Below are positions 3,040-25,244 of a stretch of DNA of 64,000 nucleotides, piece by piece. Every line of letters begins with the position of its first letter. Position 1 is the first letter of the stretch. Under the pieces are notes generated by a model. It was not told the origin of the DNA. It saw only the letters and a list, made by a program, of their open reading frames with translations, and made no database searches. The position numbers were made by a program, and so were the translations under genes. Location: NCBI GenBank assembly GCA_965219325.1, contig OZ244723.1, positions 1,981,803 to 2,045,802 of the forward strand, written 5' to 3'. The DNA is from Dehalococcoidia bacterium. GTDB lineage: Bacteria > Chloroflexota > Dehalococcoidia > Lucifugimonadales > UBA2962.

Positions 3040-3271
3040 TTTATCCTCCGAGATCGTTCTGTGGGGGCATGTCAGTCTAGGATGTCACTTCTGATCGTAG
3101 GACGATTCCAGCACGCTGACTACGTACCATGTGTCCTCTTCGTTGCCTGAACCGACCAAGCAGGTCCACTCCTACTCTCGTAGGTCGGCGGGTCGCGTCG
3201 ACATCTTGGTGATCCGGGTCATGGCTTTTTTCTCCTGTCCTGATACGCAAGAAGGGCCGCATACATTGACG

Positions 3272-3316
3272 GGTAGGGGAGGCCGCCGACTCATGTCTGA
3301 CGACCTCCCCCGTACC
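3272..3316 (-). terminator. GC hairpin downstream of helicase-tail relic 1
   Basis: Imperfect stem ggtaggggagg...cctcccccgtacc immediately after the stop, followed on the minus strand by gtatgcggcccttctt. Confidence 0.5.
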
Positions 3317-3324
3317 TCTGCTAT

Positions 3325-3645
3325 CTAGCGCCCCGCTCCGGCCAACACGGCCTCTCGCTCCCGCTCAAGGGTCAGCGCCCACTCGAACAGAGATGGTGAT
3401 GTGGGCTGGGGCTTCCGGCTGCGGCGCCTGGGCTTGACCTGCTCCGCGGCCATGAACTCGGCCCATGAGAACAGCGACAGCGGCGGCTTGTCGGCACCGT
3501 CATGATGCCCATTGCCGTTGTGTCCATTGACCGGGACCAGTTCGACCTTGGGCCCGATGTCGGGGCCGTCATGATGACCGTTGCCGTTGACCTCCACGGT
3601 TGACGCCTCTACATCGGCCGGCCTCCAGTCCATGTCCACCGGGGA
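3325..3645 (-). pseudogene. Orphan C-terminal ~105 aa of the ICE SF2 helicase (relic 1)
   Basis: DWRPADVE..VNGNG..SLFSWAEFMAAE..KPQP.SLFEWAL..ERERE.V.GAGR aligns to the C-terminus of 22671-25007; all helicase motifs absent. Confidence 0.85.
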
Positions 3646-3689
3646 ACGTGCCACACCCTGCCAGCAGCCGTCCACACCCGGTATCCCTC

Positions 3690-5153
3690 CTACTCCGGGA
3701 TGACCTCAGCAGCAGCTTCGGGTTTTGGCCTGACCAGGACGATGGCGCTCTCCGGTATCCCCAGCAGCGGCAGCAACTCATCCAGCGCATCCACCACTGT
3801 CTGCGGCACCAGGGCCTCGATGAATATCCCGTCCCGCACCGTCGACCTGACGACCTTGTCGTCGGGACCCAGCGTCGCCTGCCCGGGACCGGCCGCAACC
3901 AGTACATCATCGTCATTTACCTGCCTGTTCTGGGACGGCTCCACGAGAGTAATTCCGATCGTGTTTCCGGCCGAATGCGCAAAACGGTTCAGGATCACCG
4001 ACCATCTCCACAGCTCGCCGTAGCTGTGACCCACGGGGATCAGCACCACCTCGGGTGGCGCTTCGGTTGGGAGCAACCTTGTGAACCCGTCGCCGAAGGC
4101 CGTGCACATGTTCGTCTCCTCCCTGCAGATCGCCGTGCTGCCGTCAGTGTGCGTGTACCTGCACAGACCGTCTTCGTCGAAATTCTCGTAGCAGAAGTAG
4201 GCGGCAGCAAAAGATAGATCGTCGGGAGGCGGGTACAGCTTCAGCTTCAGGGCCTCCAGCTCCTCCTCGTCCTGCGGCAGGGGTCCCTTGACCTGGAAGT
4301 AGCGACCGATTCTACCGGCGACGCGGGTCTCTGGAACCCTCTTCCAGACGGCACAGGAGACGTAGACCACAGGATCGGTATCGCAGTCGGGCTCCGGTAT
4401 GTCGGTCGTGGACACGTCCGACACATCTATGCTCAGCGGGACGTCGGAACCCCTGGGGGCATCCACGGTGGGCCACACCTGCCTCCACGCCGGCCAGCCC
4501 GCGACCGATTTCCGCGCCTCCGACCCACCCGGGTACAGGAAGATCTGGACGTAGTCCGAATCAAGCGGGAATGGCGGGAACAACTGGCCCGGGGGATAGT
4601 CGGTAAGGCCCCTGAAGTCGACCCAGCCCAGCGAGCACAGCTTCCACTCGCGGCCACTCAACCCCGTGCACTGCCGTTCGTCTATGTCCCTGTAGTGATT
4701 TACTCCCTGCGGGCCGTCCAGGAACTCGATGGCCTTCTGCTCAAACACACCGGCCAAGTCCCAGTCCAGGGGCCTGCTGCCCGCCAGGAATATGTGCAGC
4801 ACGGCGTTAGGCGCCTCGTACATCGCCACGACCTGGATCTCTCCATCCCTCTGCGCCTCCTCCAGCACATGGCAGTGCAGACTCTCCTTTGACAGCAGGC
4901 CTCCCCAGCAGTCCCCGGGCGGCGAGGTGCCCACGGCTGCCTTCTCCGGGGTCACCTCGACTTCGGCCGTCGGTTCCGGCGCGGCATCCGGCGTCTCGAC
5001 CGTGTCCGTATCCGAATCCCCCGCGGCTGCCGTTTCCGTCGGTTCCGGCGTCTCTCCGCCGCCGGTCTCCGAATCCCCGGGAGCAGCCGCCGGAGTGCAT
5101 GCCACCGCCAGTGCCAGAATCAGCACGACCGGCAAGGACTTGCCGACTCCCAT
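3690..5153 (-). CDS. Secreted Cys-containing lipoprotein, unknown function
   Basis: Likely start MGVGKSLPVVLILALAVAC (lipobox), acidic Pro/Thr linker, then a Cys-rich mature region. Confidence 0.7.
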   Translation of the reverse strand: MGVGKSLPVVLILALAVACTPAAAPGDSETGGGETPEPTETAAAGDSDTDTVETPDAAPEPTAEVEVTPEKAAVGTSPPGDCWGGLLSKESLHCHVLEEAQRDGEIQVVAMYEAPNAVLHIFLAGSRPLDWDLAGVFEQKAIEFLDGPQGVNHYRDIDERQCTGLSGREWKLCSLGWVDFRGLTDYPPGQLFPPFPLDSDYVQIFLYPGGSEARKSVAGWPAWRQVWPTVDAPRGSDVPLSIDVSDVSTTDIPEPDCDTDPVVYVSCAVWKRVPETRVAGRIGRYFQVKGPLPQDEEELEALKLKLYPPPDDLSFAAAYFCYENFDEDGLCRYTHTDGSTAICREETNMCTAFGDGFTRLLPTEAPPEVVLIPVGHSYGELWRWSVILNRFAHSAGNTIGITLVEPSQNRQVNDDDVLVAAGPGQATLGPDDKVVRSTVRDGIFIEALVPQTVVDALDELLPLLGIPESAIVLVRPKPEAAAEVIPE

Positions 5154-5160
5154 CAGATAG

Positions 5161-5300
5161 CTACTGCGAAAACCCGTGTGGACGGCCGCGCAGTATCTCG
5201 TAGCCGTCCACTGATTCGGCGTCCTCTTGGGGCTGTTCCAGGTCAGGGTCACCCTGTTCTCGACCAGGCTGATCGTCAGGCCGGTGGGCCGCAGGGGCCG
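5161..5300 (-). pseudogene. Frameshifted fibronectin type III domain fragment
   Basis: RPTGLTISLVENRVTLTWNSP in one frame continues as EDAESVDGYEILRGRP after a 1-nt shift; stop at 5161. Confidence 0.6.
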
Positions 5301-5642
5301 CCGGCCCAACTGCATGGACCGGTCTGTCGAGCGCCATGTGAATGCCTTCCTTCGCACGGTCGGGATTAGCGGCGTCTATAACCTCCTCCGCTATCCGCAG
5401 GTGGAGTTGCAGCCAGTGATTCCGCCTACCTTGTCATTCCTCTTACGCATGAACCCATAAAAACACTGGAGGCTCTTCATCGATTTGGTAAGTGCCTAAT
5501 CACACTTTTTCGGCAGCAATGTTGTTTGCTCTGGGAGAGAGTGTTTCTGCAACTGTTCGCTCTCGCCGGCGCAAACGGAACTGGCTGGATTAGCAGTCAT
5601 CCACAGCATCCCTGTGAGCCTGGAGAACGAGGTGAGACTGAT

Positions 5643-6449
5643 ATGCAGAATCCGGCAAGAATCCTGACGATACTGCTATTGGTCATTGTTGCCGTCGTGC
5701 TGGCGGGCTGCAACAGCAGCAGCGACGATGGACGCATCACCGCACTGGAGGAAGGCCTGAGCCGCGCCGAGGCGCAGGAGCGCGAGGGCCGGGAGACTGC
5801 CGCAGGCAAGCGAGCGGAAATTGCCGAACGGCTGTCCGTCCTGGAGCAGGCCTTGGAGCGGACTGAAGCCGAGCGCGATGCCAACGAGGAACTGAACGCG
5901 GAGACACGCTCTTTGGTGATGGCCCTGTTCACCGGGGAACCTGGTGTCAGCAATGCGGTGGGCATGAGGATGACCGACGAGCAGATGTTGCAGGAAGTGG
6001 GTATGGAACGAGAGAGGCTTGTGCAAGAGGAGCCGCGCTTCACTATTGAGGGCGCCAGCACCGAACAGAAGACGGTCATTGAAGCGGGAGCCAGGTGCCT
6101 GGCCTTACGGGACCAGGGAATGCCGGAACAGACGCAAGAACTGGTTCTCGAAAACTACCGGCTCAACGCGCAGCGGACGGAAGACGACGCCGAGTTGGTG
6201 ACGATGACGTATATGGCCTGCGGCACGGCGGGAATGGAGCCGAGAGACATCAGGGCTCCCTCCGCCGAACGGGCCGATGCGATAGCAACGCTGGTAGCTT
6301 GCTATGAGGGGTACGAGGCTATTGCGGAAGACCCGCCGTCGTTGGAGATGGTGGATCAGGCCCTCAGCATCTTTCAGGACGACGGTACGGCGACGGCCAT
6401 AGCCCGGCTGATTTGCCAGGACTTCTCCCGGGAGGCGATGCGGCAATAG
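5643..6449 (+). CDS. Coiled-coil lipoprotein, unknown function
   Basis: MQNPARILTILLLVIVAVVLAGC lipobox; E/R/A-rich helical region. Confidence 0.75.
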   Translation: MQNPARILTILLLVIVAVVLAGCNSSSDDGRITALEEGLSRAEAQEREGRETAAGKRAEIAERLSVLEQALERTEAERDANEELNAETRSLVMALFTGEPGVSNAVGMRMTDEQMLQEVGMERERLVQEEPRFTIEGASTEQKTVIEAGARCLALRDQGMPEQTQELVLENYRLNAQRTEDDAELVTMTYMACGTAGMEPRDIRAPSAERADAIATLVACYEGYEAIAEDPPSLEMVDQALSIFQDDGTATAIARLICQDFSREAMRQ

Positions 6450-6572
6450 CTGTCAAAGGCGGCGATCCTTTCATTTGGCGGTCGATGAGTCGTATCGTCA
6501 TCTCGGTATGCGGGGTCATGGTCTTCCTCCCTTGTTCGGAAACGAAAAAAAGGCGGCACATACGGGTTCGGG

Positions 6573-6607
6573 CGGGTGAGGATGCCGCATGGTGGCATCC
6601 TCACCCG
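6573..6607 (-). terminator. Perfect 14-bp hairpin downstream of helicase-tail relic 2
   Basis: cgggtgaggatgcc-N7-ggcatcctcacccg, followed on the minus strand by gtatgtgccgccttttttt. Confidence 0.6.
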
Positions 6608-6618
6608 TGTGTTGCGTC

Positions 6619-7232
6619 CTAGCGTCCCGCGCCCACCAACTCCGCTTCCCTTTCCTGCTCGATGGTCAGCGCCCACTCGAACAGTGACGCGGTTGCTGGC
6701 TGGGGCTTGCGCCTGCAGCCCTTTGGCCTGACCGGCTCAGCGGCCATGAACTCGGCCCAGGAGAACAGCGACTGCTGCGGTTCGGCATCCTCGTCGAGAT
6801 GACCATTGCCGTTGTGACCGTTGACCGCGACCAGTTCGACCGTAGGGCCCAGGGCCTCCTTATGGCCGTTGCCGTTGACCGCGACGGCCCCTGGCTCGAC
6901 CTCGACCGGTCTCCAGTGCTCGTCCACCAATAGTTCCTCGGCGGTGGCTTCGGCGTCCCGTGCCGCGGTGAAGACCTCCTCGACCGTCTCCGCGTCCTCT
7001 TTCTCGTCACCGCTGACGATCTTGCGGGCCAGGGCCATCATCAGGTCGTCGCCCTCGTCTCCGTATGCGGCCAGCCCGTCCTCCGGCAGCTCCCCCTCGA
7101 CGGCGAGGGAACTCTGCAGTTTCTTCGCCACCAGCTTCAGGGCGTCGGCCTGCAGGGTGCTGCGGTAGCTCATGAACACGACCCTCACGGGCTGGGTCTG
7201 CCCGATGCGCCACGACCGGCGCGACTTCTGCC
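6619..7232 (-). pseudogene. Orphan C-terminal ~200 aa of the ICE SF2 helicase (relic 2)
   Basis: RRSWRIGQT.PVRVVFMSYRSTLQADALKLVA.KLQSSLAVEGELPEDGLAA is near-identical to the intact helicase; homology ends a few bases from the stop of the next EEP gene. Confidence 0.9.
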
Positions 7233-7240
7233 TAGTGACG

Positions 7241-7963
7241 CTATGTTTCGTCGCGCGCTGAGAGTTCGGCAAAGATTCCGAAATGATCGGACAGCCTGCG
7301 ATCGCCGTCCATGTTGCTGATCACGCCCAGGGACTCCGCCGCAAGGTCATCGGTGAGGACTATGTGATCGATGCTCCTTCGTCCCTGGTGGCCGAGCGTG
7401 GAGGTCGCGATCGTCATCCCATCCGGTATGGCTCTCCTCAGCGCTATGAGCAGGTCCACCGGCGTATGGCCTCGTTGCGAGATACGCTGGTTGAAGTCCC
7501 CCATGACGATGAGGCGCTCGGTGCGGTCACGTGAGAGCACGCCGGCAAGACCGGCCAAGTACTCACGATGGTCCTCCCACATCTTCCGCCCGTCTTCCGA
7601 ACCCCGGACCCGCGATCCCGACCAGGGTATGCAGACCCCGATAACGGTGAGCTGGCCGATCGACGTATCCGTGACACCCGCGACGAACCTGCCCGGCGGC
7701 ATCGACCGGTCTCCTACGTCGTCGACCCGCTCCCACGGCCGCTTCGACCAGAGATGGACCTTCCTGCGGCCCTCCCTGATCGGGTATCCGTAGTCCTCCT
7801 GAGAACAGATCGTGTGCCCGTCTCCGGGAGACAACCCGATAACCGCCTCGGTGAGACAGACGATTTCAGGATCATGCCGCTCTATGCGCCTTCGGATCTC
7901 GACCGATCTTGGCGAACGGGGCGTCGCCCATTCGACGTTCCAATTGACCAGCCTCAGCTGCAT
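7241..7963 (-). CDS. EEP family protein 2 (divergent subfamily)
   Basis: LVNWNV, VCLTEA, MGDFN, SIDHI, LSDH. Confidence 0.88.
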   Translation of the reverse strand: MQLRLVNWNVEWATPRSPRSVEIRRRIERHDPEIVCLTEAVIGLSPGDGHTICSQEDYGYPIREGRRKVHLWSKRPWERVDDVGDRSMPPGRFVAGVTDTSIGQLTVIGVCIPWSGSRVRGSEDGRKMWEDHREYLAGLAGVLSRDRTERLIVMGDFNQRISQRGHTPVDLLIALRRAIPDGMTIATSTLGHQGRRSIDHIVLTDDLAAESLGVISNMDGDRRLSDHFGIFAELSARDET

Positions 7964-8052
7964 TGCACGTCGTTCCTACTCTCCCCTGGAATTGAGTCGA
8001 CCGTGATCGATCTGCATCTCCCCTCGCCGGATTGAACGGTCCCGCCCGAATC

Positions 8053-8628
8053 TCATTGTGCCGTTATGAACACGGGCTCCTTGCCGATGTACTGGAGTAC
8101 GCCCCGGACCCAATCGACCGTCGCATCAGAGGTTTCCGGGCCGGTCAGCACATCAACGTGGGGCGCCAGATGCGGTGGGTCTTCCCACCTCGTCACAACG
8201 ACCCTGTCCGGCCTGCTGGTCGAGGTGGCCAGCTGGCTCACCCCTATGGATGAGCCGGTGCTCGCAAGTACCGCCCGGGTCGGGCAGTGGCGGTCGAGTT
8301 CGGCCAGCACCCCGCGCTTGACCTCAAGACCACCTGCCGTCGCCTCCACGGCGAAGCCGACCTCGCCCATGGCGGCCGCGATAGAGGTGCTGGGCACCAG
8401 GTGCTCCAGGGCGCGCTCCGCTGTCCATCGATCCACCATTCCCTGTCGTTCGAGGCTGCCGAGCGCATTGCGGATATCGTCGAGCGCCCTGCATAGATTC
8501 TGTCGCGACGAGTCCACGAGAACGACTCTGAAGCCGCCGAGCGCGAGGGACAGCGCAATCCACTGTCCCTCATCCCCCACGCCGACCACTGCGGCATCTC
8601 CTACAGGTTGTACGCCTCCGTTTGGCAT
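8053..8628 (-). CDS. 3-hydroxyacyl-CoA dehydrogenase NAD-binding-domain-only protein
   Basis: Rossmann VVGVGDEG, FAVEAT, LEVK, LASTGSS; the catalytic HFFNP is replaced by RWEDP; no C-terminal domain. Confidence 0.7.
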   Translation of the reverse strand: MPNGGVQPVGDAAVVGVGDEGQWIALSLALGGFRVVLVDSSRQNLCRALDDIRNALGSLERQGMVDRWTAERALEHLVPSTSIAAAMGEVGFAVEATAGGLEVKRGVLAELDRHCPTRAVLASTGSSIGVSQLATSTSRPDRVVVTRWEDPPHLAPHVDVLTGPETSDATVDWVRGVLQYIGKEPVFITAQ

Positions 8629-8660
8629 CTACGCTCCCTGCGGGCTTGGCCGCCGCAGCT

Positions 8661-9485
8661 TCACGAGACCTCGATTTCGATGCGACAGTGATCGCTCGGA
8701 CCCCAAAGTTCTGGTTCGTTCAGAGCGCTCACGCGCACGGAATCGGCCATTCCCTTGGACGCGAATACGAAGTCCAACTGGCGGGTAGCAGTGGACGGGC
8801 CCTGGCCGATCCGGTAGTAAGAGGGGACATTCCTGCTGTCGTCGGGTAGCTCATCCGGCCAGGGATCCGCCCGCCGCCCGTTGGGGGCCTGTGGACCTAC
8901 GAAAGCGAGTCCCAGCGCCTCCATCCTGTCAAACACTGTTCCGTACCGCCCAGCCCAATATTCGCTGCCGCCATCTCCATATCCCCGAAGTATGTTGAGA
9001 TCGCCGGCAGCGAGGATCCGGTGTCCGCCCTGACTCCCGATGAACGTGGAGATATCCGAGATCACGCGGTGGGCAGACGCGTCCGAGACGATCCAGCTGC
9101 TGCCAGAAGAGGCGTGAGGCCTCTCCCACAGTGCGTACATGGAAATCGCCACGAATGGCTCGATCCCGGGAGCCGACACCTGCGCCGCGGCTACTGTCCC
9201 CGGACGGCTGACGGCGAACTCCCCCGAGCGCACCTCCTCCATTGCCTTGGGTATAATCCATGCAACCTCCACTCGGTCGGAGAGCCTTGCTATCGCCGTC
9301 CTGCGGGTCCAACCGGTCCATCCAACGGTTGTCCAGGGGGCGGGATCGACGTCAATCCGCCTGCTTAGCTCAACCGGAGGGCGATCCGCCTCCTGCAGGA
9401 GAGCGACATCGGCGTCCATCGCTATCAGACAATGCCAGGGATCCGTCCTGCCGTCGATGTTCCAGGAGACGATTCTCATTCCCAC
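8661..9485 (-). CDS. EEP family protein 3 (paralog of 1 and 4)
   Basis: IVSWNI, DADVALLQEA, ILAAGDLN, QLDFVFAS, WGPSDHC. Confidence 0.9.
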   Translation of the reverse strand: MGMRIVSWNIDGRTDPWHCLIAMDADVALLQEADRPPVELSRRIDVDPAPWTTVGWTGWTRRTAIARLSDRVEVAWIIPKAMEEVRSGEFAVSRPGTVAAAQVSAPGIEPFVAISMYALWERPHASSGSSWIVSDASAHRVISDISTFIGSQGGHRILAAGDLNILRGYGDGGSEYWAGRYGTVFDRMEALGLAFVGPQAPNGRRADPWPDELPDDSRNVPSYYRIGQGPSTATRQLDFVFASKGMADSVRVSALNEPELWGPSDHCRIEIEVS

Positions 9486-9518
9486 TGAATTGACCTTAGC
9501 CCGCTCCCCAAAATGCTA

Positions 9519-10255
<737 letters not shown>

Positions 10256-10481
10256 TCCAGCCGGTATGTTAGTACGCCGGACCTGTGTAAGGGTGAATGA
10301 CTCCGAGGAATAGCCGCACCTTTAGGCTGCAGGATGCGGCGTTATGCTTGAGCAGGCCCGCGGCGTCTCGACGTGGCGGAAATGGCGGCCATCGGCCTGA
10401 TTTCAGGCCCGTTCTCCCGAATACTCTGCCGGAAATGGTCACGGAGCAGTCACTCACGCTGTGTGCCAGTCAAGGAGAGAA

Positions 10482-11321
10482 ATGCCCACAAATATAGTTA
10501 GCTGGAACATCGCCAGGCGAAGAAAGCCGTGGCGTCAGCTGTTGCAGATGGACGCGGACGTGGCGCTGCTGCAGGAGGCGGGGCGAATCCCGGAGGATGT
10601 CTCCGAATCAATCGAGGTCGGCGACGACGAGCTCAGGGACTCGGATGCCTATGACCGATTCCCCATGGTAGCGAGGCTGTCCGATCGGGTCTCCGTTGAA
10701 TGGTTCAACCCGGCAGACCCTACACGCGAGACAGGTAGTGACGATTTCACCGTCAGTGACATCGGCACCATAGCCGCCGCCCGGATTGTTCCCAATGATT
10801 CGCCCCCGTTCATGGTGTTTTCCATGTATGCCCGCTGGGAACGGCCGCACCCATCGACCGGGACCAAGTGGTTTGTTGGCTATGCCGATGGCTCGGCTCA
10901 TCGCATGATCTCGGATCTATCGACGTTCATCGGCAGCGAGGACCTGAGCACACACCGTATCCTGGCAGCGGGTGACCTCAACCAGATCTACGGCGCCACC
11001 GACGACAACCGGTCTGCGCTCCCGGCCCGTGATCGCAGTGTCATGGACCGAATGGATGCGATTGGCCTGGAGTTCCTGGGGCCGCAGCACCCGGCGGGAA
11101 GGCGTGCGGACCCAACTCCCCAGGGCCTGCCGCCGGATACAAGGACCGTGCCCACCTGGCATAGCACCGTTGACTCTCCGGCGACCGCCCAGATTCAGCT
11201 GGACTATGTGTTCGCCTCCTGGGGATTTCACCGGGACGTTTCGGTGCGCGCGATGAACTCCGTAAAAGAGTGGGGTGCCAGCGATCACTGCCGTCTGCTG
11301 GTCGAGGTCGCCGGCAAGTGA
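10482..11321 (+). CDS. EEP family protein 4 (paralog of 1 and 3)
   Basis: SD aaggag; IVSWNI, DADVALLQEA, ILAAGDLN, QLDYVFAS, WGASDHC. Confidence 0.9.
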   Translation: MPTNIVSWNIARRRKPWRQLLQMDADVALLQEAGRIPEDVSESIEVGDDELRDSDAYDRFPMVARLSDRVSVEWFNPADPTRETGSDDFTVSDIGTIAAARIVPNDSPPFMVFSMYARWERPHPSTGTKWFVGYADGSAHRMISDLSTFIGSEDLSTHRILAAGDLNQIYGATDDNRSALPARDRSVMDRMDAIGLEFLGPQHPAGRRADPTPQGLPPDTRTVPTWHSTVDSPATAQIQLDYVFASWGFHRDVSVRAMNSVKEWGASDHCRLLVEVAGK

Positions 11322-11524
11322 TGGGCTCGGCTGAGGTGTTCAGGATTCCATGCGACCCGGATGCCGGCTCAACGCATCGCTCGCGCTGGAAGTTGGTCTT
11401 TCGGGCCAGGTCAGGCCCAGAAGGCCCCCGTCTCGGCAAGGGGCAGGTCGAGACAGCAGCACCCGGCTGTCGAATCAGGCGTCAAAACCCGTTCGATTGC
11501 GCCTCCCTCCGATGAGGACCTGAC

Positions 11525-13275: not shown

Positions 13276-13412
13276 GGTCTGTTCCGGGCGATGATCCTTC
13301 AGTCTGTGGCAGGAAGCCGACAGTAGCGATTGGCAAGGGCCATTGGGGACGGCGTGGAGAATCGGTGGGGAAGAACGGGGCCTGAAGTTTGCTTATGGAG
13401 ACGGAGAAGAAC

Positions 13413-14432: not shown

Positions 14433-14468
14433 AAGCCCGATCCAAACGAGTCCACTCGGGCGCCTCAC

Positions 14469-15268
14469 TCAAGAGCTCTCAGCTTCTGCCAACTCGAATT
14501 TCAGGACAGTCGCCACGACCTTCTCGAGCCATTTGATCAATCTGTCCACCTGGTCGCCGTCGAGTTCCCGGTCGGTTCGCCAGGCGAGATCGTCAGCCTT
14601 CCCTATTGGGACGAAGATACCGGTTTCCAGGGCTTCTTCTCTGAGGGATTCGATCACGCTTGGAGGCACATTGGAATTCTTCCTGATGTAGTAGAAGGCT
14701 GTATAGAAAGAAGATGGGTTGGAGACTGACGGCGGATACCCAAAGCAAATTGCCACCAAGGGCCGACGCGTGGCGACGTTCAGGGAAAATCCCTTTCTAC
14801 CCACCTAATCTGCATTCCTCCCCGCCTCCCAATAGCCAGCACGCGTACGTACAAGGCCCTCCCGTTCTCGTTGAACGATTCCAGGAAATCCGACTCATTG
14901 GTTCGGTTGTACTTGGACATCGCCTCGCGGTCCTCGGGTTCAAGATCAGACGCCTGCTCGCTGATCCTCGGCGTCACATCCTTGCCGGGCAGTATCTCGA
15001 GCAAGACTTCGACCTGATCAGGATTGATCTTGAAGAATTCCCGGGAGGCATTGATTCTGTGTGGCCCAAATGCCGCGTGCAGTGCGTCCTCCACTCTAGA
15101 CGCCTGCTGGTCTGCGACCTCTAGCGCGGCGACGCACTCAAATGGAAGAGGAACTCCCGTTGAGTAGAGTTCGCCCATTCGCAATCGAACGTCGTCCCTG
15201 TCGGTCATGCCAATCTTCACGATCCCCGGCATGGCGGGATTGGTGAGGACGTACACTATGTTGGACAT
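14469..15268 (-). pseudogene. GIY-YIG (T5orf172-like) nuclease with C-terminal domain, split by a frameshift
   Basis: IVYVLTNPAMPGIVKIGMT...REFF; adding one G in the aggtgggtaga run (~14800-14808) fuses it to the 14469-14804 ORF. Confidence 0.75.
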
Positions 15269-15497
15269 TTGCCTTCCCCTCATTCGTTGCGCAATAGAAC
15301 GGCTGGTCCATACCCCAGTACCTTGGGGCACCTATATTCTCACCCACCTGACTCTGGAAACAGGTGGAATACGAGCACTAGACTCGTTCCAGCGGTTGAG
15401 TTCGAGAGCGTGACATTGACAGCGACATGCTCGACATCCATAGCTCTATTCATCCCTTGCATAGCTGCTTGATCCACAGGCAGTTAAAGGAGTATTG

Positions 15498-17384: not shown

Positions 17385-17628
17385 ATATTCCGTCTATTGG
17401 AGCGTCGATTGGGATTGCCTTCTAATGTTGTACGCCTTGAAGCCCTCAGGCAGACGGGGCTCAAGACAGGCAGTGTTGAACTGCCCTTCTCTCAGCCAGG
17501 ACATCAAGAGACGTTGAGATCGAGGGACAGGGCTGGGTCGATCGTATGAGCGACGACTTATCCAGTGACAGCGGCGAACCTGCCGGCCACTTCGTATTCG
17601 CTTTCGTTGCGGAGCTGGAGAGTGCCGG

Positions 17629-17898
17629 CTAGGCGTCATCATCGATCCACTTGATCACGTCGGCCGGCAAGCCTTCCCCTGCGGAAGGGGGCACCCATGA
17701 CCCGACAAGCAGCTTGTCGTTAGAGTCGAGCGCCGGCTTCAGGTAGTCCCGTACCTCTTTGGCAGTCCTAGCAGTCGCTACGCCCCATGTAGACTGCATG
17801 ATGTGCTTGTGGTTCCGGTACAGCTTATTGCAGCCTATCAAGGCGGCGTAGTTCTGTCCTGGATCCGAAGGATCATGGGTGACGATGTACCTCGCCAT
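17629..17898 (-). CDS. Small Cas2/VapD-like ferredoxin-fold protein
   Basis: YIVTHDPSDPGQNY..HIMQSTW..RDYLKPALDSNDKLLV resembles standalone Cas2-like proteins; SD ggagg. Confidence 0.55.
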   Translation of the reverse strand: MARYIVTHDPSDPGQNYAALIGCNKLYRNHKHIMQSTWGVATARTAKEVRDYLKPALDSNDKLLVGSWVPPSAGEGLPADVIKWIDDDA

Positions 17899-18580
17899 GC
17901 CGGAACCTCCGCTATCCTGATGCCTCTATCGTCCCATCAGCAGCGTTCTCACGGTCCATCTATTTTCCTCTCTGGATGTAACCAGCGTGTTGCTCACAGC
18001 GTCCCCGCTGAGTGCATGGTGTGTACCTCCTAGGCGAGCATTCGTGATTAGGATGTGGCTAGGCATCTTGGTCTTTGTACGGGTCGATCCGATGCTATAG
18101 TTAAAGGAAATGGCCTGTCCTCCCGCACTGGCCCTCAGATGGGCTAAGTGAAGGCTGACCCAGAGGGGCATGGCTTAGTCTAAACAGCCTTTTCTGCCAA
18201 GTCGGGAAGGGCTGATTTGTCTTCGGAGATTCTCGTACTCATGTTGGTTCATGATCGATGGTGGTCAAGGATTCCGGGAGACTGTGCGGTTTTGTGGCTC
18301 GCTAGGGAGATTTCGTGAGGACTGTTGTTCATTTCTATAGGAATGATCGGAATCGTAGGCGTGATCGTGGTCGCGACAGCTTTGCTGCGATTTTGCATCT
18401 TGATTCGTGTCGTTGGCTTCCTCTCTGTGTTGATCGACTTGATAGAGGAAGGAATTGGTGGCAGCGATTTGAGTCTGAGGATGATGCACGGAGGGCGGCC
18501 TATGCGCATGCTCGGAGTGAGGGCTTGGATGATGGTGCCGTGGTGGAGAACCCGAGGTGCTATCGTTGCTCGCGTGAGAG

Positions 18581-18862
18581 TTAGCTGACTAGCGTCTCGT
18601 AGTCTAGGCGTAGTTCCGGGAACCCGGCGGCCTGATATCTCACGGTCTGATGCCGAAACGGCAGGCGATTGTATCCATTGTTCTCGTCGGTATAGCCGAT
18701 GTCATTAGTTGTGACATCTTCACTGACGAATAGGTGAAGGGTTGACATGGATACATAGCGTTCGTGAGAAGCGTAAACTGGACCTGTAGCGCGATCCCGG
18801 ACGCCGCTGATTACTTCCTTAAAGAAAGGGAAATCCCCAATTCTCCATCCGGGTACGTCCAA
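18581..18862 (-). CDS. Hypothetical protein or fragment
   Basis: Low-GC ORF with TTG start, co-oriented downstream of 18963-20162. Confidence 0.3.
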   Translation of the reverse strand: MDVPGWRIGDFPFFKEVISGVRDRATGPVYASHERYVSMSTLHLFVSEDVTTNDIGYTDENNGYNRLPFRHQTVRYQAAGFPELRLDYETLVS

Positions 18863-18962
18863 TGTGCTTGACTATGACGGACACGGAATGACCATTAGCA
18901 GCCTGTTTGCGGGATCAAGGTAATACTGGTGAAACTGAACATATACTTGCGGCAACTTCATT

Positions 18963-20162
18963 CTATTTTTCTTGGAGGACTTGAGATTGTCTAAAAGTGC
19001 CCGTAATCAATTCTACACGTGGCGTGGAATAACCATTGATTACTACTACAGAATCAAAAGAAGTTAAGTCCATCGTATTCCAAGTGGTAGATTGGCTATC
19101 TATGTTTAGGTCTAGGACATTCAACAGCACCAGACAGAAGTATGGAACTTCCTCATCCGACTGCTCCTTATGACGTCCCTTGCTCCTGATCGCACGAGCT
19201 AATGCCATCTCGATATCCGCCTCTTGTATGGGAGGACTCTGTATGGCCATATCCATATTCTTCCCCGCATCCCTTGGCTTATCGAGAACCTGGCGACCTT
19301 CCAGTAGGTCGCCCAAAACGCGAGTAATCTCAAAATGCCACTGTACGCCATCTAGGCGGATTCGGTAGTCCGGAAAAGTCTTAGGACCATTGGGTTCATG
19401 GCAAACATCTTGAACCTCTATTCCCGCCTTGCGGAGATAGTCTTCCATTATTCGGATAGACCAGTTTTCGGCGACTGCCGTATCGGAGAGCAGGGGCGTT
19501 GGCTCCTTTAGTGTTAAGGGGCCTTGGGCCCCCACCCTTAAAACGAGTGCAGGAATTGCTGGATTGTACAAATGGACAATCAGCCATCTTGGGCTTGCAG
19601 TATGTCGGCTCGTCAAATCCATCTTGTACGGCTCGACAACGAAGTGACGTGTCTTTTCGCCAGTGCAGACGCTGATCAGTTTTTCGGTAGGCGAATCAGA
19701 CATCGCGGGTACAGGGAGTGTGGATAGATGGGAAAGGAGTTCGTTCTCGAGTCGCGGAGGATGAATCACATATACCTTTGTGGCGCCATCAATGTAGTCG
19801 GAGTCCTCGTTTCCGGCTATCTCGGCGATCATTGCCCTGAGCAAGGGGATACCAAGCCGTTTACCACTGGTGTCTGGTACGATGGAATCAGCGATGGTTG
19901 AAGAATAGAACTCCTTTGTGCTCTGTCCCATTCTCTCGTCGAGTAAACCGGACATGTACCCAGCAACGTTAGTGACGAGATTCTCACCAGCTTCAAATGT
20001 AACAGAATGCACACTTAATTCATCATACTCAGAGCTACCTGGTTGGATCACCTCAAGATGTACAAATGGAGGCACTAAGCGACGGAATAACTTCAGTCCT
20101 GGGCTATCCTCACCCAGAAGATACACTTGAGGCACTCTTATGCGAGTAGGTACGAAACTCAT
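18963..20162 (-). CDS. Hypothetical protein with a C-terminal PD-(D/E)xK-like nuclease domain
   Basis: 399-aa low-GC ORF; EP..PKTFPDYRI...HFEITR motif. Confidence 0.6.
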   Translation of the reverse strand: MSFVPTRIRVPQVYLLGEDSPGLKLFRRLVPPFVHLEVIQPGSSEYDELSVHSVTFEAGENLVTNVAGYMSGLLDERMGQSTKEFYSSTIADSIVPDTSGKRLGIPLLRAMIAEIAGNEDSDYIDGATKVYVIHPPRLENELLSHLSTLPVPAMSDSPTEKLISVCTGEKTRHFVVEPYKMDLTSRHTASPRWLIVHLYNPAIPALVLRVGAQGPLTLKEPTPLLSDTAVAENWSIRIMEDYLRKAGIEVQDVCHEPNGPKTFPDYRIRLDGVQWHFEITRVLGDLLEGRQVLDKPRDAGKNMDMAIQSPPIQEADIEMALARAIRSKGRHKEQSDEEVPYFCLVLLNVLDLNIDSQSTTWNTMDLTSFDSVVVINGYSTPRVELITGTFRQSQVLQEK

Positions 20163-20335
20163 CTATCTCACGTTCACCAGTTGGTTCGCCGGTATAATCC
20201 GTGTAGCAATGAGTTCCTGTGGACAGTATGGCCTCCAGAACAGTTGAGCCAAAGCAGAGAAGGCGGAATCAGTCGAATCGCATGACTTGATAGTGTCGAC
20301 GGCCACCCGGGCAGTCGCATGATGGCCTCCCCCTG

Positions 20336-21478
20336 CTAAAGGACGCTAGAGAGGTATGGGCGCATGGATGCGATGAGGTCCTTGCCTACCTTTCGCTCTA
20401 GAACTCTCCGATGTTGGTCCGATATCTGTTGCTCATAGTCACAGGGCGAGAAAAACGCATTCCCTATGCTACTCAAGACTTCAAACACTAGATTCATAGT
20501 TCCTTCGCTGGAACTGTTAGCCAGGTTGATCACTGACTTGATTCTATTGACCGTTATTGTTCTGCTTGCCGTGGAGGTACGCAAGTGCGAAACCACCAGC
20601 CTGTGTACATGAGCTCCCGAATAATTGACAGCTGAGCCGATGGGATAGAGCGTGAGGTATACTTCGCCGGCCCTTACGTTGTTGTACAGGGTGTATCGAC
20701 CTGACACAGCAAGTCGCAACGGTAACGGGATTATCTCATCTATTGACGTTTGAATTAGCGATGCAAACTGGCCACTAAGGTAACAGTCATCGAACAACGA
20801 TTTAGTTTTCCTAATTGTTTGAATACGCTCTCTATGGAGCCATTTCCCAATTGGGACTCGTTGATCTCGCCAGACGCCGTCTGTCAATTCGGGGGTTGCG
20901 CGTCCGAGACCAATCTGATCATCCAATTCCATCATCACCAAACGGTATGAAATCAGGAAACACTGTTCGTCCGTCAAGACCGGAGTGTCCAGCGGATGGG
21001 GCAAGCCGACTCCGTTTCGTTCAATCGGCCGGAACACCTCAGAGTCGTGCCATTCGCAGGCGAACCGACGCGTCGATGCTTCGCGGACGCCTATCTCTAT
21101 GGGATGCCATCTACTCCTGTCCACAAACACTGGGTACGGGTCGTCGTGGCGATTGACCAGGCGCGCCAGGATAGTAGGGATGTCGCGCGGGAACATCATG
21201 ACTTTGCCTCTTACGGCAAAGGATGAGAGCAATGCACGTTGGATCGAATGACTCCCAATAGGAGGGTTCGAACAGGTAGTAGCAGCTTTTGCTGGCACGA
21301 GGCAAAGGGATTGTGAGCGTCCCTTGCTCTGACGGATATGCGCCGTGTTGGACATCCGCATGCCTTCGCCAAAACGCTTGTCCCGCTTGATCTCTGCCCG
21401 GTCAGGTCTCCAATGCCGTCGCCCGTGTATCGATCCAAACCTCTTCTTGGCCCCACGCCTTCTACGTGACTTTGGCAA
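20336..21478 (-). CDS. Hypothetical Zn-binding, HNH-like protein
   Basis: C..C SNPPIGSHSIQ and ASTRRFACEWHD..F.PIE motifs; 380-aa low-GC ORF. Confidence 0.6.
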   Translation of the reverse strand: MPKSRRRRGAKKRFGSIHGRRHWRPDRAEIKRDKRFGEGMRMSNTAHIRQSKGRSQSLCLVPAKAATTCSNPPIGSHSIQRALLSSFAVRGKVMMFPRDIPTILARLVNRHDDPYPVFVDRSRWHPIEIGVREASTRRFACEWHDSEVFRPIERNGVGLPHPLDTPVLTDEQCFLISYRLVMMELDDQIGLGRATPELTDGVWRDQRVPIGKWLHRERIQTIRKTKSLFDDCYLSGQFASLIQTSIDEIIPLPLRLAVSGRYTLYNNVRAGEVYLTLYPIGSAVNYSGAHVHRLVVSHLRTSTASRTITVNRIKSVINLANSSSEGTMNLVFEVLSSIGNAFFSPCDYEQQISDQHRRVLERKVGKDLIASMRPYLSSVL

Positions 21479-21597
21479 TTCTTCTCCCGGCTTGGTCTTT
21501 GCCCAAACGATGGCTTAGCCTCTTACTTTCGACTCTTATCGCTTTGTCCGAAGAAACCGCCTTTGAAGGCGGCATCACCTGACCCCAGTCCAGTTCC

Positions 21598-21870
21598 TTA
21601 ATCGTCATGCAGAAGCTCCCAGTCCGGTTCGACGTCTCGCAGCCTGGGGGCGATTCTTGCTAGGTCGGCCTGGAGCGCCGACCAGACGATCTGGATTGCT
21701 TCGCGGCGTGAAGGCAGCCTTGGATGCCTCGCGGCGTAAGGAATGGCCTCACGACCCTGCACCATGAAGCTGCGGCCTTCGTGCCTTACGAGGAAGGCGA
21801 CCTGATAGGCCATCTTGGAGTGGTTGTCCACCGGGAAGATCTTGGTCGTGTAGACCTTCACTTGAAGCAC
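21598..21870 (-). CDS. Hypothetical protein
   Basis: 90-aa ORF co-oriented with its neighbours. Confidence 0.4.
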   Translation of the reverse strand: MLQVKVYTTKIFPVDNHSKMAYQVAFLVRHEGRSFMVQGREAIPYAARHPRLPSRREAIQIVWSALQADLARIAPRLRDVEPDWELLHDD

Positions 21871-22220
21871 TGGGATACTCCGTCTGGTCGATGCCAGCCC
21901 TCAACCGGCCGCTCTAGAATAGTGCCAACGGGCCGACGACAGCCCCGACTCATTGGCTCAGATGTTCTAAATCTATCACGGCGGCCATCGCCACGCCATC
22001 CATTCCCGCAGGTTCCGACCGATTAACGTGCTAGTCGGTCAGTCCCACATGCACGACACGGATGCTGGCATGGACATGCTCATACGCAAAAGGGGCGACA
22101 CTCATGGTCGTGCAGGAAGAAGGCACCACGTGACTATTGCAGCCTTCCACAGCGCATTCGGGCGCCAACGGACCTGCGCCAGCAAACGCAAGAGGCGCCC
22201 ACACATGGACGAGTTGCCTG

Positions 22221-22565
22221 TCATCCAGTCCAGTCGCCTGACATGCCCGGGTCGGTCTCCCTCGAAAGCGTATCGGCGAGCCGGCGGTAAGTCTCCGCCT
22301 CGTCCGTCATTCCTCCGTCCGCCAGCTCAGCACTGCGCATCCTCGCAAATGAAATTGCCGATACCTTGCAACGGTTGCACACCGTCGGAAGCGACAGATC
22401 GTGCCGCCTGCGCTGCAGGTAGTCCTGCACGGTGGTCAGGTCGTGGACGGAGGCGTCGGCTCCGCAGAGGGCTTTCTCTACCCTGGCATCGGCGTCGAAC
22501 AGGTGCATCTCGATCAATTCGCATCTCCCTTCGGTATCCGGTTCCCGGTCTCTCGCGTTTTCCAT
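22221..22565 (-). CDS. Small hypothetical protein downstream of the helicase
   Basis: ATG preceded by ggaaaagg; H..C and CNRC residues suggest metal binding. Confidence 0.55.
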   Translation of the reverse strand: MENARDREPDTEGRCELIEMHLFDADARVEKALCGADASVHDLTTVQDYLQRRRHDLSLPTVCNRCKVSAISFARMRSAELADGGMTDEAETYRRLADTLSRETDPGMSGDWTG

Positions 22566-22626
22566 CAGCCTTTTCCATTCCTCGAAAGTCCTGGAACGCA
22601 AAAAAGGCCGCATACATGGCCGGCCA

Positions 22627-22657
22627 GGGGGCAGTCGCATTTGCTGCGACTGCCCCC
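22627..22657 (-). terminator. Perfect 13-bp hairpin after the intact helicase
   Basis: gggggcagtcgca-tttgc-tgcgactgccccc, followed on the minus strand by gtatgcggcctttttt. Confidence 0.6.
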
Positions 22658-22670
22658 GTTGCGTTGCGTC

Positions 22671-25007
22671 CTAACTTCCCGCTCCGACCAACTCTGCCTC
22701 CCGCTCCCGTTCAAACGCCCACTCGAACATCGAGAGGGATGCGGGCTGAGGCTTGCTCTTGCGGGCCTTCGGCTTCGCCGGTTCTGCGACCATGAACTCG
22801 GCCCATGAGAACAGCGTCTGCTGCGGCTCCGGGGCCTCCTCGTGACGGCTGCTACCATTCCCGTTCCCGCTGGCGTGGTGGCCGTTTCCTAGGACCAGCT
22901 CGACCGTCGGCCCGACGACGTCGCGGTGGCCATTGCCGTTGACCGGAACCGCCTCTGGCTCGACCTCGACCGTCCTCCAACCCTCGTCCACCAGCAGTTC
23001 CTCTGCGGTGGCCTCCGCGTCCCTTGCGGCTGTGAAAACCTCCTCCACCGTCTCCGCGTCCTCTTTCTCGTCACCGCTGACGATCTTGCGGGCCAGGGCC
23101 ATCAACAGGTCGTCGCCGTCGTCGCCAAATGCGGCGAGCCCGTCCTCGGGAAGCTCACCCTCGACGGCGAGGGAGCTCTGGAGCTTCCTGGCCACCAGCT
23201 TGAGGGCGTCAGCCTGCAGGGTGCTGCGGTAGGACATGAACACGACCCTGACGGGCCGGGTCTGCCCGATGCGCCAGGACCGGCGCGAAGCCTGCCGCAT
23301 GGTGTAAACGGAGTAATCGGTTTCGAACCAGACCACGACAGGAAAGTCGATCAGGTCGAGGCCGGTCTGCACCAGTCGCGGATGGCAGATCAGGACATCT
23401 ATACCCTCATCCACCCTATCGGCGACCCATGCCTCCCGCCGGTCCGGGGCCACTACGTCGGCCTTCATGACCGCGACGCGGAACCCGTGCCGTGCGAGGA
23501 TCTCGTCCATCCGACCGGTGATGTCACGTGTCCCGGTGTGTGTGACGTAGACGAGGACCCGGCGTCCCTGGAGCCTTTCGGCGGCGACGAGGTCGATTAG
23601 CCCCCGCTCTTTTGGATATAGCCGCTCCTCCGACAGCGGCGGCACCTGCGCGAGCACCTCTCCGGTTTCAGGATCCAGCACGGTCTCGCCCCTGGTGCAC
23701 CCGTCGGGGAAGGCGAGCAGTGTCTGTAGATACGCGGCCAGGAGCCGCCTTGAGCCCCTTGCGAGGGCGTCTGCGAGTGCGGCCCTCAGGGTCTCGAACA
23801 GCGCCTCGTAGGCCGATCGCTGCGAGAGCCCGGTAGTGTCGGGATCTGAGTCCATGTCCGATACCAGCACCTCCTCTGTGTAGGGTGGAAGGCCGGATGC
23901 GACATCCGAGAGCCGCAGAAAGATTGACTGCCCGATCAGGTGAAACAGCGCTGCGGGGGCGAGGCCGGGCCGCTCGCGGACGACCTTTCGGTAGCGCCTC
24001 CTTCGGCTGGCCCGACCGTCCTCGTCGTGGCGGTCGCTGGGTTTGCCGATGGTGTGCTCTACGAAGCCGTAGCGCTCGACCCAGCGGTGCTCGTCGGACC
24101 GCCCGAACTCGGTCCTTATGCGGGGGCTGAAGCGATAGAGTAGGTGGAAGAGCGTGCTTGCGTACCCCCCCATGAGGGTGCCGCTCAGGCTGAGTGTCCT
24201 GCCGCAGACGTCGGCGAGGATGCCGGCGGCGATGCCCTGCGCCGAACCCCAGGATTTGAACTCGTGACATTCGTCTGCGATCAACAGGTCGAAGAAGCCG
24301 GCCATCCTGTGCTTGATGTAGTCCGCTAAGGGATATCGCCTGGGACCGGAGTTGTCGGCCTGCCACAGGGCGGAGCCGCATGCGTTGCAGGTGCGCCGCC
24401 TGCGTGACAGATCGCGGTCGGTGAGGGGTACGCCGTCGGTGTCCAGGACCATCACGTAACAGTCCGGGCAGCATGGAACCCGGAACGTCTCGCCGGTGGT
24501 GTCGGCGCGAAAGAGCCTGCCGCGCGCGGCGGCCCAGCGCTCGACGACGGCGGGCTGCCATCGATACGACAGTTTTGCTCTCTCCCTGGACATCACCGCG
24601 AAGAGCGGTCCTTCGTCGCCGAGCGTGCGCAGGCGCTCCAGGTCGGTGATCGAGGTGACGATGGCGGCATGGGCGCCGGGAACGGTCTCCTCCACCTCAC
24701 GCTTCCACTTTCGGGTCAAATGGGGCGGGCAAAGTACTAGCACACTACGGAATCCTGCCATGTGGGCTGCCGCTGCGGCGATGAAGGTCTTGCCGGTGCC
24801 CATCTCGCCGACGACGGTGGTGCCGCGGTTGGTCCTGAGCGAGAGGGCCGCGCCCCTTATGGCGTCGGCCTGGGCCCCTAGCGGTGAGCGCAGGAGCTCG
24901 GGCAGGCGGTGTCCGTTCTCGGACGGCCTGTAGAGGGGCGGGTAGGACGCGACCACCCGTCGGGCGATCGCGTCTCGGTATTTTTCTATGAAGTCTGCCA
25001 GGTTCAT
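22671..25007 (-). CDS. SF2 (SNF2/DEAD-like) helicase of the ICE
   Basis: GEMGTGKT, IADECH, LSLSGT, QTGLDL, QASRRSWRIGQ; Zn-ribbon insertion. Confidence 0.9.
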   Translation of the reverse strand: MNLADFIEKYRDAIARRVVASYPPLYRPSENGHRLPELLRSPLGAQADAIRGAALSLRTNRGTTVVGEMGTGKTFIAAAAAHMAGFRSVLVLCPPHLTRKWKREVEETVPGAHAAIVTSITDLERLRTLGDEGPLFAVMSRERAKLSYRWQPAVVERWAAARGRLFRADTTGETFRVPCCPDCYVMVLDTDGVPLTDRDLSRRRRTCNACGSALWQADNSGPRRYPLADYIKHRMAGFFDLLIADECHEFKSWGSAQGIAAGILADVCGRTLSLSGTLMGGYASTLFHLLYRFSPRIRTEFGRSDEHRWVERYGFVEHTIGKPSDRHDEDGRASRRRRYRKVVRERPGLAPAALFHLIGQSIFLRLSDVASGLPPYTEEVLVSDMDSDPDTTGLSQRSAYEALFETLRAALADALARGSRRLLAAYLQTLLAFPDGCTRGETVLDPETGEVLAQVPPLSEERLYPKERGLIDLVAAERLQGRRVLVYVTHTGTRDITGRMDEILARHGFRVAVMKADVVAPDRREAWVADRVDEGIDVLICHPRLVQTGLDLIDFPVVVWFETDYSVYTMRQASRRSWRIGQTRPVRVVFMSYRSTLQADALKLVARKLQSSLAVEGELPEDGLAAFGDDGDDLLMALARKIVSGDEKEDAETVEEVFTAARDAEATAEELLVDEGWRTVEVEPEAVPVNGNGHRDVVGPTVELVLGNGHHASGNGNGSSRHEEAPEPQQTLFSWAEFMVAEPAKPKARKSKPQPASLSMFEWAFEREREAELVGAGS

Positions 25008-25244
25008 CGTGGGCTGTCCTCGATATTCGGCGAGGACGCCCACCCGAACCGGGGGCATGTGCCCGGTATCCCCCGAGGAGAACGCCAGGACACTTTGATG
25101 CCCCCGCGTCGCTGGTCTGCTCCGCGGGTTCAGGTCCTGGAGGCGCCCTCCAGGTGGGGTATGGGGGGATTCATTTCGACTATTGGAAGGTGCGGGGCCC
25201 CGCCGGATCGAATGGCTGGCGGTGCCCCGTGTTGCGGCTCAGGG

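Follow-up and report, generated by a model that had tools for sequence, protein, structure and literature searches.

Displaced helicase tails beside an integrative conjugative element of a Dehalococcoidia bacterium and a predicted serine-recombinase attachment site in the helicase gene

A 64,000-nt stretch of the genome of a Dehalococcoidia bacterium (GenBank assembly GCA_965219325.1, contig OZ244723.1, positions 1,981,803 to 2,045,802; hereafter the window) was analyzed. It carries an integrative conjugative element (ICE) whose helicase gene is followed, across two arms of cargo genes, by two partial copies of its own 3' end, termed relic 2 (proximal) and relic 1 (distal). Coordinates are positions in the window unless a genome or locus label is given. 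The host genome (G000) is a single 3.25-Mb contig, and its relatives are all uncultured Dehalococcoidia/Chloroflexota metagenome-assembled genomes; the helicase/ICE family was present in 48 of the 151 sampled genomes of the order. The ICE occurs in the host genome in five full syntenic copies (75-95% protein identity) and one partial copy, and about 20 helicase fragments were counted in total, 12 of which reach the C-terminus.

Helicase gene, helicase tails and resident element

The features on which the analysis turned are as follows. LSR-A denotes a large serine recombinase, and EEP the endonuclease/exonuclease/phosphatase family.

22671-25058, minus: intact ICE helicase, superfamily 2 (SF2) type, 795 aa (Pfam ResIII 8e-7, Helicase_C 1e-6)
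23301-23331, minus: unoccupied LSR-A attachment (att) site, predicted attB, codons ~572-583, CTGGTTCGAAACCGATTACTCCGTTTACACC, a unique exact match in the window
22627-22657, minus: hairpin after the intact helicase, then GCGGCC-T6 (-54 kcal/mol, z -4.7)
7241-7963, minus: EEP2, an EEP family gene (Pfam Exo_endo_phos 2e-17) that ends the arm before relic 2
6604-7232, minus: relic 2, pseudogene, helicase residues ~587-794, 80.6% nt identity to the intact gene
6573-6607, minus: relic 2 hairpin, 14-bp stem (z -3.6), also detected as an inverted repeat
3237-3640, minus: relic 1, helicase residues ~688-794 plus 88 nt downstream, 68.3% nt identity to the intact gene
3275-3311, minus: relic 1 hairpin, from the fold and from alignment with the other two copies

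The original prediction, made from the letters of the window, had described three diverged helicase 3' ends in one orientation, each followed by a hairpin and by different genes, and this description held. All three lie on the minus strand, with 68-81% nt identity and 58-78.6% protein identity among them, and the genes downstream differ. Relic 2 aligned with positions 22655-23296 of the intact copy at 80.6% nt identity over 649 nt, relic 1 with 22588-22992 at 68.3% over 423 nt, and relic 1 (3183-3640) with relic 2 (6480-6928) at 72.8%. The corresponding protein identities were 78.6% (intact/relic 2), 58% (intact/relic 1) and 63% (relic 2/relic 1). Because the copies have diverged to this extent, the tails are not recent identical duplications, the outcome that the proposed pairwise comparison could have revealed. 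The relic limits first given, 3325-3645 and 6619-7232, corresponded to the open reading frame (ORF) parts, but helicase homology runs beyond the stops, to 3183 in relic 1 and to 6480 in relic 2. The proximal relic is less diverged from the intact gene than the distal one (80.6% against 68.3% identity), as serial accretion predicts.

Neither relic retains anything before helicase motif VI. Relic 2 is cut at about residue 587, 8 nt past the stop of the EEP nuclease gene at 7241-7963, and relic 1 at about residue 688, 50 nt past the stop of a 555-aa gene (3690-5357); open frames of 217 and 116 codons, respectively, are kept. A GC-rich hairpin of 13-14 bp lies about 15 nt after each of the three stops (z-scores -2.6 to -4.7), the stems differing in sequence among the copies while pairing and position are kept. 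With its GCGGCC-T6 tract, the hairpin after the intact helicase is terminator-like.

Misjoining of repeats during assembly would be one source of such an arrangement. Short unitigs do break inside the repetitive tail at 7000-7240, leaving the relic 2 junction unbridged, and one spurious joint from 3471 to 7076 was seen. However, the copies differ by 19-32% and hence are not collapsed repeats, and the relic 1 junction was crossed by zero-mismatch Logan contigs (for example, 3293-4294) from four public runs, which possibly derive from the sample used for the assembly, so that their independence is uncertain. The relic 2 junction was present at three other loci, one of them in another species, and the genome is contained in one contig. 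An assembly artefact was considered scarcely credible.

The resident element and the start of its helicase-side arm comprise the following.

25569-46080: resident ICE core, with genes for a DUF6094 methyltransferase, DUF2958, RadC, a Rad52-type annealase, VirB4, a coupling protein and a Replic_Relax relaxase (Pfam)
39482-41758: P-loop_TraG/AAA_10 (VirB4; Pfam)
41804-44392: TrwB_AAD_bind (coupling protein; Pfam)
44389-46080: Replic_Relax relaxase (Pfam)
21598-22640, minus: start of the conserved helicase-side arm, with a 139-aa gene (22221-22640) and a 90-aa gene (21598-21870), from DNA homology to the related copy ICE-B

With VirB4, coupling protein and relaxase in one block, the resident element is predicted to be an ICE of the type IV secretion system (T4SS) type. 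Its T4SS block is divergent from a co-oriented block that runs from the Rad52-type annealase through RadC, DUF2958 and the DUF6094 methyltransferase and ends with the helicase; the methyltransferase gene lies directly upstream of the helicase, and the two are separate genes. In the 795-aa helicase, a Pfam SNF2-rel_dom match was absent, and NCBIfam gave weak matches only, to the SCO1167 helicase family and to DISARM DrmD. Four other full-length helicase copies in the host genome share 84-90% aa identity with it. The segment 21604-23300 is homologous to ICE-B at the DNA level, and homologues of the 139-aa gene follow three further helicase copies or relics of the host genome and occur at 14 other loci. 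An integrase of the resident ICE was not found, tblastn of the window with both serine recombinase families (LSR-A and LSR-B) being negative; related ICE copies elsewhere do encode large serine recombinases. A tRNA-Thr (CGT) was called by ARAGORN between the two ICE operons (32049-32124, minus), with an unusual anticodon position. It was rejected as the ICE att site, as four of the five ICE copies lack it and it falls below the Rfam gathering score.

The predicted attachment site in the helicase gene

All 12 C-terminus-reaching tails of the host genome start at residue 584 or later; under uniform truncation over residues 1-765, the chance of 12 such late starts is (182/765)^12, or about 3e-8. 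Junctions and tail starts were also compared across relatives, covering 80 related loci. Ten to 12 of about 16 relic tails there start at residues 563-581, and helicase 5' fragments ending at residues 589-596 were found in G000, G022, G031, G032, G039, G084, G120, G128, G137 and G144. When the junctions were aligned, a common boundary was observed between ...GGTTCGAAAC and CGATTAC..., preceded by at least five unrelated classes of upstream DNA that share it to within about 30 nt; LSR-A is the upstream gene in one of these classes.

These boundaries bear on the possibility that ICEs accumulated in tandem at an external att site and that random deletions then happened to end inside helicase genes. 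The five ICE copies and many ICE fragments of the host genome would suit such arrays, as would the cut of relic 1 (about residue 688) at no recognised site and the lack of a recombinase beside either relic. Random deletions should, however, leave longer fragments as well, such as methyltransferase plus helicase, whereas the cut points cluster at about codon 579 across genomes, longer tails are absent, and the junction between EEP2 and the tail recurs at four loci. Given the boundary statistics, the tandem-array model is already disfavoured, and it was judged unlikely.

The clustered boundary coincided with complete insertions in other genomes. Four split helicases were inspected (G031, G022:C1, G167 and G168), and LSR-A was found at one junction of each. 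In G031, residues 18-589 and residues 581-794, both on one strand, are separated by a 42.4-kb element that contains VirB4, coupling protein and relaxase genes and has LSR-A at its end, while the methyltransferase and the rest of the host ICE lie upstream of the helicase 5' piece. The flanks overlap at residues 579-589, and joining them restores one helicase on paper. Both attL and attR bear arms (TGTCGATTG / CAATCGACA), the element ends forming imperfect inverted repeats, and the same att-arm pattern holds in G022, G167 and G168. The helicase of G022:C1 is split like that of G031, by an element of about 44 kb. Those of G167 and G168 are split by 23.5 and 20.5 kb, respectively, with the element reversed relative to G031, so that LSR-A points toward the helicase 5' piece and the end lacking the recombinase adjoins the tail; insertions into the site were thus seen in both orientations. 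A fifth split helicase (G084, 21 kb) was recorded from coordinates only.

The 31-nt site at 23301-23331 is homologous to the split point in G031, G022, G167 and G168 and lies between motifs V and VI, with the boundary at about codon 579. The split helicases in these other genomes showed this site to be the putative attB of LSR-A. The recombinase itself, as encoded at L034:8364-9992, has Resolvase (7e-25), Recombinase (2e-21) and Zn_ribbon_recom (2e-11) domains and the motif YARVSDKSQ, by which LSR-A of the related loci is predicted to be a bona fide large serine recombinase. Its reading frame crosses the junction/att site (L034, L055 3' end), and integration therefore alters the last residues of the enzyme. 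In G022:C5, a co-oriented series of methyltransferase, full helicase, 1.2 kb of normal arm, intact LSR-A and a tail of residues 579-770 was observed; L085 has a similar order, with the arm decayed and the recombinase gone. A puzzling repeat thereby becomes a defined recombination site, with a predicted attB at 23301-23331, an attP reconstructable from G031 and an intact recombinase gene.

The original prediction had offered, as its alternative, that the helicase tail is a recombination hotspot for exchange of cargo. This was right in spirit, but the hotspot appears to be the att site of a serine recombinase, situated where the tail has its 5' edge. A form of cargo swapping without any site-specific recombinase was also weighed, in which the helicase 3' end serves as a homology arm and the other side is joined illegitimately. 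The helicase copies are indeed mosaics, with blocks of 77-98% identity alternating along the whole gene, the ICE carries a Rad52-type annealase and RadC, and the NERD gene, EEP genes and tails are common to the ICE-B and ICE-D islands at 84-90% identity and in a different order. Such swapping would leave unexplained both the single start position of the relics and the presence of LSR-A and arm sequences at that position in relatives, and double crossovers would exchange cargo without leaving relics; as the origin of the array it was held to be improbable.

Group II introns occupy the same gene. They interrupt the helicase near residues 96, 160, 245, 266/300 and 578 (L040, L054, L056, L057, L077, L092), three of them in the one helicase gene of L056, where an ORF-less intron sits between TTCG and AGAC, within the att core. 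The helicase gene is a favoured target of introns as well as of the recombinase. The boundary of relic 2 might accordingly descend from an intron at codon 578/579 whose 5' exon and intron body were later deleted, a scheme to which the L056 intron, the introns at several helicase sites in relatives and the ORF-less intron 2.3 kb from relic 2 would lend themselves. Intron domain V/VI is absent, however, next to relic 2 and its paralogous junctions, and the ancestral deletion would have had to stop precisely at the 3' splice site; an intron origin was rated quite improbable.

Several further traces of recombinases and element ends were noted. The two LSR-A-like genes of the host genome end in a palindrome, TGTCGATTGATTCnCAGnCATCGACA, beside DNA encoding (I)DM(A/S)GY. 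Copies of the element-end (P/P') arms at G000:762920-762965, 1289968-1290013 and 424534-424570 lie beside non-helicase DNA with TCGA(A/T)A and may be secondary-site insertions or orphan ends. In ICE-A and in the partial ICE, a tail from about residue 736 begins 64-77 nt after the relaxase stop in the same orientation (G000:1160668-1160772 and 1384652-1384828). These tails could not be a C-terminal domain of the relaxase, since a stop codon intervenes; they look like eroded recombinase-side junctions left by an ICE after insertion into a helicase gene.

The EEP2 junction and the history of the island

The genes abutting the relics had been taken as unrelated neighbours. For relic 2 this was contradicted, as the block of EEP3, spacer, EEP2 and tail recurs in the host genome at 1687 kb (83.7% over 2.8 kb) and 1650 kb (86.4%). 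The EEP2-tail junction is thus present at three loci of the host genome, the window included, with a remnant in the sister species G003; the two junctions outside the window are directly oriented and separated by 37 kb, both lying downstream of the ICE-B helicase. The relics are cut at different 5' points, as first stated, but the cut of relic 2 does not appear arbitrary in view of the att hotspot at about codon 579 and the helicases split elsewhere. Its homology to the intact helicase stops 5 nt short of the predicted attB, on the B' side. At the best-preserved junction (1687 kb), helicase-derived sequence continues up to the GATT of the core, which is preceded by CAGAGACTGA/AGACAGAGAC, similar to the inner arm of the element ends; this likeness is only suggestive. 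The window copy has lost about 30 nt relative to the 1687-kb copy. In sum, the boundary of relic 2 quite probably derives from an LSR-A att site.

As side observations, EEP2 is the last gene before a helicase tail at every EEP2 copy, and an EEP C-terminal fragment directly follows the ICE-B relaxase. Four EEP paralogues lie in the window within 9 kb of one another (2158-3039, 7241-7963 and 8661-9485, all minus, and 10461-11321, plus), and further EEP copies occur in other ICE islands of the host genome.

The recurrent junctions also allowed the fate of the tails to be compared with that of the adjoining gene. The three EEP2 copies are intact, gapless and 91-93.5% identical at the nt level, whereas identity among the tails next to them is 74-79%, and these show 127-358 gap columns as well as a 14-nt deletion, an in-frame TAG and a truncation. 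As the tails decayed beside an intact EEP2, and their divergence is at or above that of EEP2 third positions, the EEP2-type tails are pseudogenes. Alternatively, the tails might be working stand-alone genes maintained by selection, for example encoding a C-terminal-domain protein that acts as a competitor or regulator of the ICE helicase. Relic 2, relic 1 and several 579-type tails in other genomes do retain open frames, and conservation is highest in the last ~50 residues (LFSWAEF...SLFEWA). The paralogues of relic 2, however, are frameshifted, stopped or truncated, start points range over residues 584 to 765, the tails have diverged to the synonymous level or beyond, and a conserved start codon or ribosome-binding site was not found, leaving a function of this kind very improbable. 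Both relics are almost certainly non-functional fossils of helicase genes from earlier ICEs of the same family.

Relic 1 is the most diverged tail, and its junction was found nowhere else. Most likely it is an older tail of the relic 2 kind whose first ~110 codons and junction were deleted later. Cutting by LSR-B at about residue 688 was tried as an explanation and rejected, as LSR-B genes are not adjacent to helicase tails.

A history consistent with these findings can be proposed. The helicase gene would carry the att site for a family of LSR-A elements, many of them T4SS elements related to the host ICE. Insertion at the site would split the helicase and push its 3' piece, with the terminator hairpin and the downstream cargo arm, away from the core, and a newcomer would bring its own helicase and arm to lie in front of the displaced tail. 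Since every LSR-A insertion breaks the helicase that it targets, a helicase found intact upstream of a displaced tail, as in G022:C5, would be that of the newcomer. The older core, now disabled, would then disappear through homologous recombination of the directly repeated cores or through a deletion; recombination among copies is plausible because the helicases are mosaic and a Rad52-family annealase is among the proteins of the ICE. Successive insertions into whichever helicase is newest would stack the units in the order helicase, arm-n, tail-(n-1), arm-(n-1), with older cores as direct repeats on the other side. The direct array of the window, with intact helicase, cargo A, tail 2, cargo B and tail 1, would be the product, and an ICE with its own helicase that inserted in the inverted orientation of G167 and G168 would leave the units in the same order. 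A variant in which small cassettes with a replacement tail and a recombinase restore the helicase was rejected, since attP would need a B'-type arm, an abnormal substrate for a serine integrase, and the G031 element has no tail at its far end.

The accretion of tail-and-cargo units advanced in the original prediction fits the evidence, but the tandem integration at an outside att site that it implied fits poorly, the helicase gene itself being the apparent locus. The mechanism is well supported for the family, and for this island we infer it: that relic 2 was made by LSR-A insertion, that the events occurred in this order and that the cores were lost by recombination.

A number of observations weigh against this history. 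The LSR-A gene, the P arm (TGTCGATTG) and a helicase 5' fragment are all absent from the window, where only scars are present and no remnant of an old core survives. Among relatives, an intact intermediate, with both ends of a helicase-bearing ICE nested in a helicase, was not found, and the complete insertions inspected (G031, G022:C1, G167 and G168) lack a helicase of their own. The cut of relic 1 lies off the att site at a unique junction. Of the att repeats that might bound the units, and for which a search had been suggested, a trace is present for relic 2 only, on the B' side; the arm-like motifs at the paralogous EEP2 junction are about 10-17 nt long, possibly a chance match, and have been lost from the window copy. 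The tails are more diverged than the EEP2 third positions in two of the three pairs only. The two LSR-A-like genes of the host genome (1186958 and 1895309) adjoin non-helicase DNA. Sliding-window identity of the intact helicases showed no sharp switch at codon 579; such a phylogenetic switch had been considered as a marker and was dropped as uninformative, the mosaic blocks being spread gene-wide. With these points taken into account, the whole chain, in which related elements repeatedly inserted in the helicase of the resident ICE and redundant cores were then lost, remains the favoured account, if by no means a secure one.

This account offers a mechanism for the growth of defence-rich islands in uncultured Dehalococcoidia, in which displaced tails would form a built-in record of insertion order and helicase tails a cheap marker for ICE scars and cargo boundaries. 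A broader idea, put forward tentatively and with more doubt than confidence, is that Dehalococcoidia ICEs of one family use each other's helicase gene as a landing site, the newcomer disabling the resident ICE as it splits the helicase, and that collapse by recombination of the directly repeated cores, perhaps aided by the Rad52-type annealase, merges their cargo arms into one working core. If so, nested self-targeting and collapse would be a general engine building the large defence-gene islands of these genomes, the tails would be a stratigraphy of past invasions recording the order of insertion, and the snf2 preference seen among streptococcal ICEs might have a similar explanation.

Cargo arms and comparison with known systems

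The arms between and beyond the helicase tails contain the following features.

7964-21597: cargo A, with EEP3, a group II intron, EEP4, a NERD gene, REase-ARP, T5orf172/PDC-S57 and GmrSD/HEC-06 (Pfam, PADLOC, Rfam)
9519-10266, minus: ORF-less group II intron (Rfam Intron_gpII at 9519-9619), just upstream of EEP3
3676-6572: cargo B, with a 307-aa gene (5526-6449, plus) and the 555-aa gene (3690-5357, minus)
1-3039: distal cargo, with EEP1 (2158-3039, minus) and an HNH nuclease (1589-2101, minus) (Pfam)
3-1514, plus: MmeI-like methyltransferase/target recognition domain (TRD) gene, running off the window (Pfam)

In cargo A, GmrSD/HEC-06 is a type IV restriction enzyme and REase-ARP a nuclease. 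The arm also holds two low-GC genes, with GC falling to 49-51% at 18-21 kb, for which PADLOC and NCBIfam gave no match. From their annotation, the cargo arms thus appear to consist largely of defence-type genes. The cargo A intron has a copy of 92.7% identity at G000 791855-792240, and a 76% identical piece lies at 58015-58193 of the window. The 307-aa and 555-aa genes of cargo B had no significant Pfam, PADLOC or NCBIfam match; their paralogues (G000:2505770-2507549 and 920466-926132) adjoin LSR-B fragments and a coupling-protein fragment, and the two genes may mark the ends of another type of element, in which they would be conserved. To the left of the window, the island goes on with insertion sequence (IS) copies and recombinase fragments, its left end lying beyond the window. 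The host genome has about 12 copies of an IS-like element some 1.65 kb long, one of them just left of the window (G000:1977774-1979433); the copies are 98-99.6% identical, and the element was therefore active recently. Two more repeat families occur in the same island (G000:1975569-1977319 and 1944590-1945786).

Islands that grow by successive site-specific integration while losing recombination and conjugation modules are familiar from accretion of the ICESt1/ICESt3 type and the associated cis-mobilizable elements (CIMEs). In SXT/R391 ICEs, hybrids arise in tandem arrays with the help of Bet/Exo, so that ICE-encoded recombination proteins reshuffle the tandem copies. Those arrays involve a chromosomal att site and tyrosine integrases, whereas the site discussed here is internal to an ICE and is used by a serine recombinase.

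Within the class, the ssrA islands of Dehalococcoides are inserted by the serine integrase DsiB in tandem at one site, leaving 20-bp direct repeats of the target 3' end (McMurdie et al. 2011, PMC3146451). The pattern in the window appears like that of the ssrA islands, which likewise depend on a large serine recombinase and include integrase-less islands among the tandem ones (PMC3146451). Their target is the chromosomal tmRNA gene, which stays intact behind a 20-bp repeat (PMC3146451); here, by contrast, the target is a gene of a mobile element, the displaced piece is about 650 bp long and one gene is destroyed per insertion.

The closest precedent appears to be the snf2 system of streptococci, in which serine-integrase integrative mobilizable elements (IMEs) and CIMEs, as well as Tn1806-like ICEs, occupy one position in an snf2 helicase/methyltransferase gene (PMC5357655, PMC12942858, PMC9815147). 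The targets are ICEs of the Tn5252 superfamily and the ICESa2603 family, nested composites result (PMC5357655), and such composites have been shown experimentally (PMC12942858). The snf2 gene is likewise the target of a group II intron, and the preference for it has been called unexplained (PMC9815147). As in streptococci, serine recombinases insert elements, whole ICEs included, at a fixed position in the SF2 helicase of a resident T4SS ICE, integrase-less derivatives occupy the same site, and a group II intron targets the helicase too. Independent insertions at one helicase position were found in the related loci; in the window, the junctions hold no integrase, EEP2 adjoining relic 2 and the 555-aa gene adjoining relic 1. 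Unlike the streptococcal system, the host belongs to the Chloroflexota, the DUF6094 methyltransferase and the helicase are separate genes, insertions are found in both orientations, and T4SS genes are common to the inserted elements and the family of the host ICE. The streptococcal reports also describe single nested insertions, whereas arrays of several displaced tails of 0.3-0.65 kb, each with its own cargo, are found here. The two systems are compared by description, and orthology is not implied; on that basis the Dehalococcoidia case would work like snf2 nesting. Targeting of an ICE helicase by serine-recombinase elements and a group II intron would then extend to Chloroflexota as well as streptococci, reflecting either a shared constraint or convergence.

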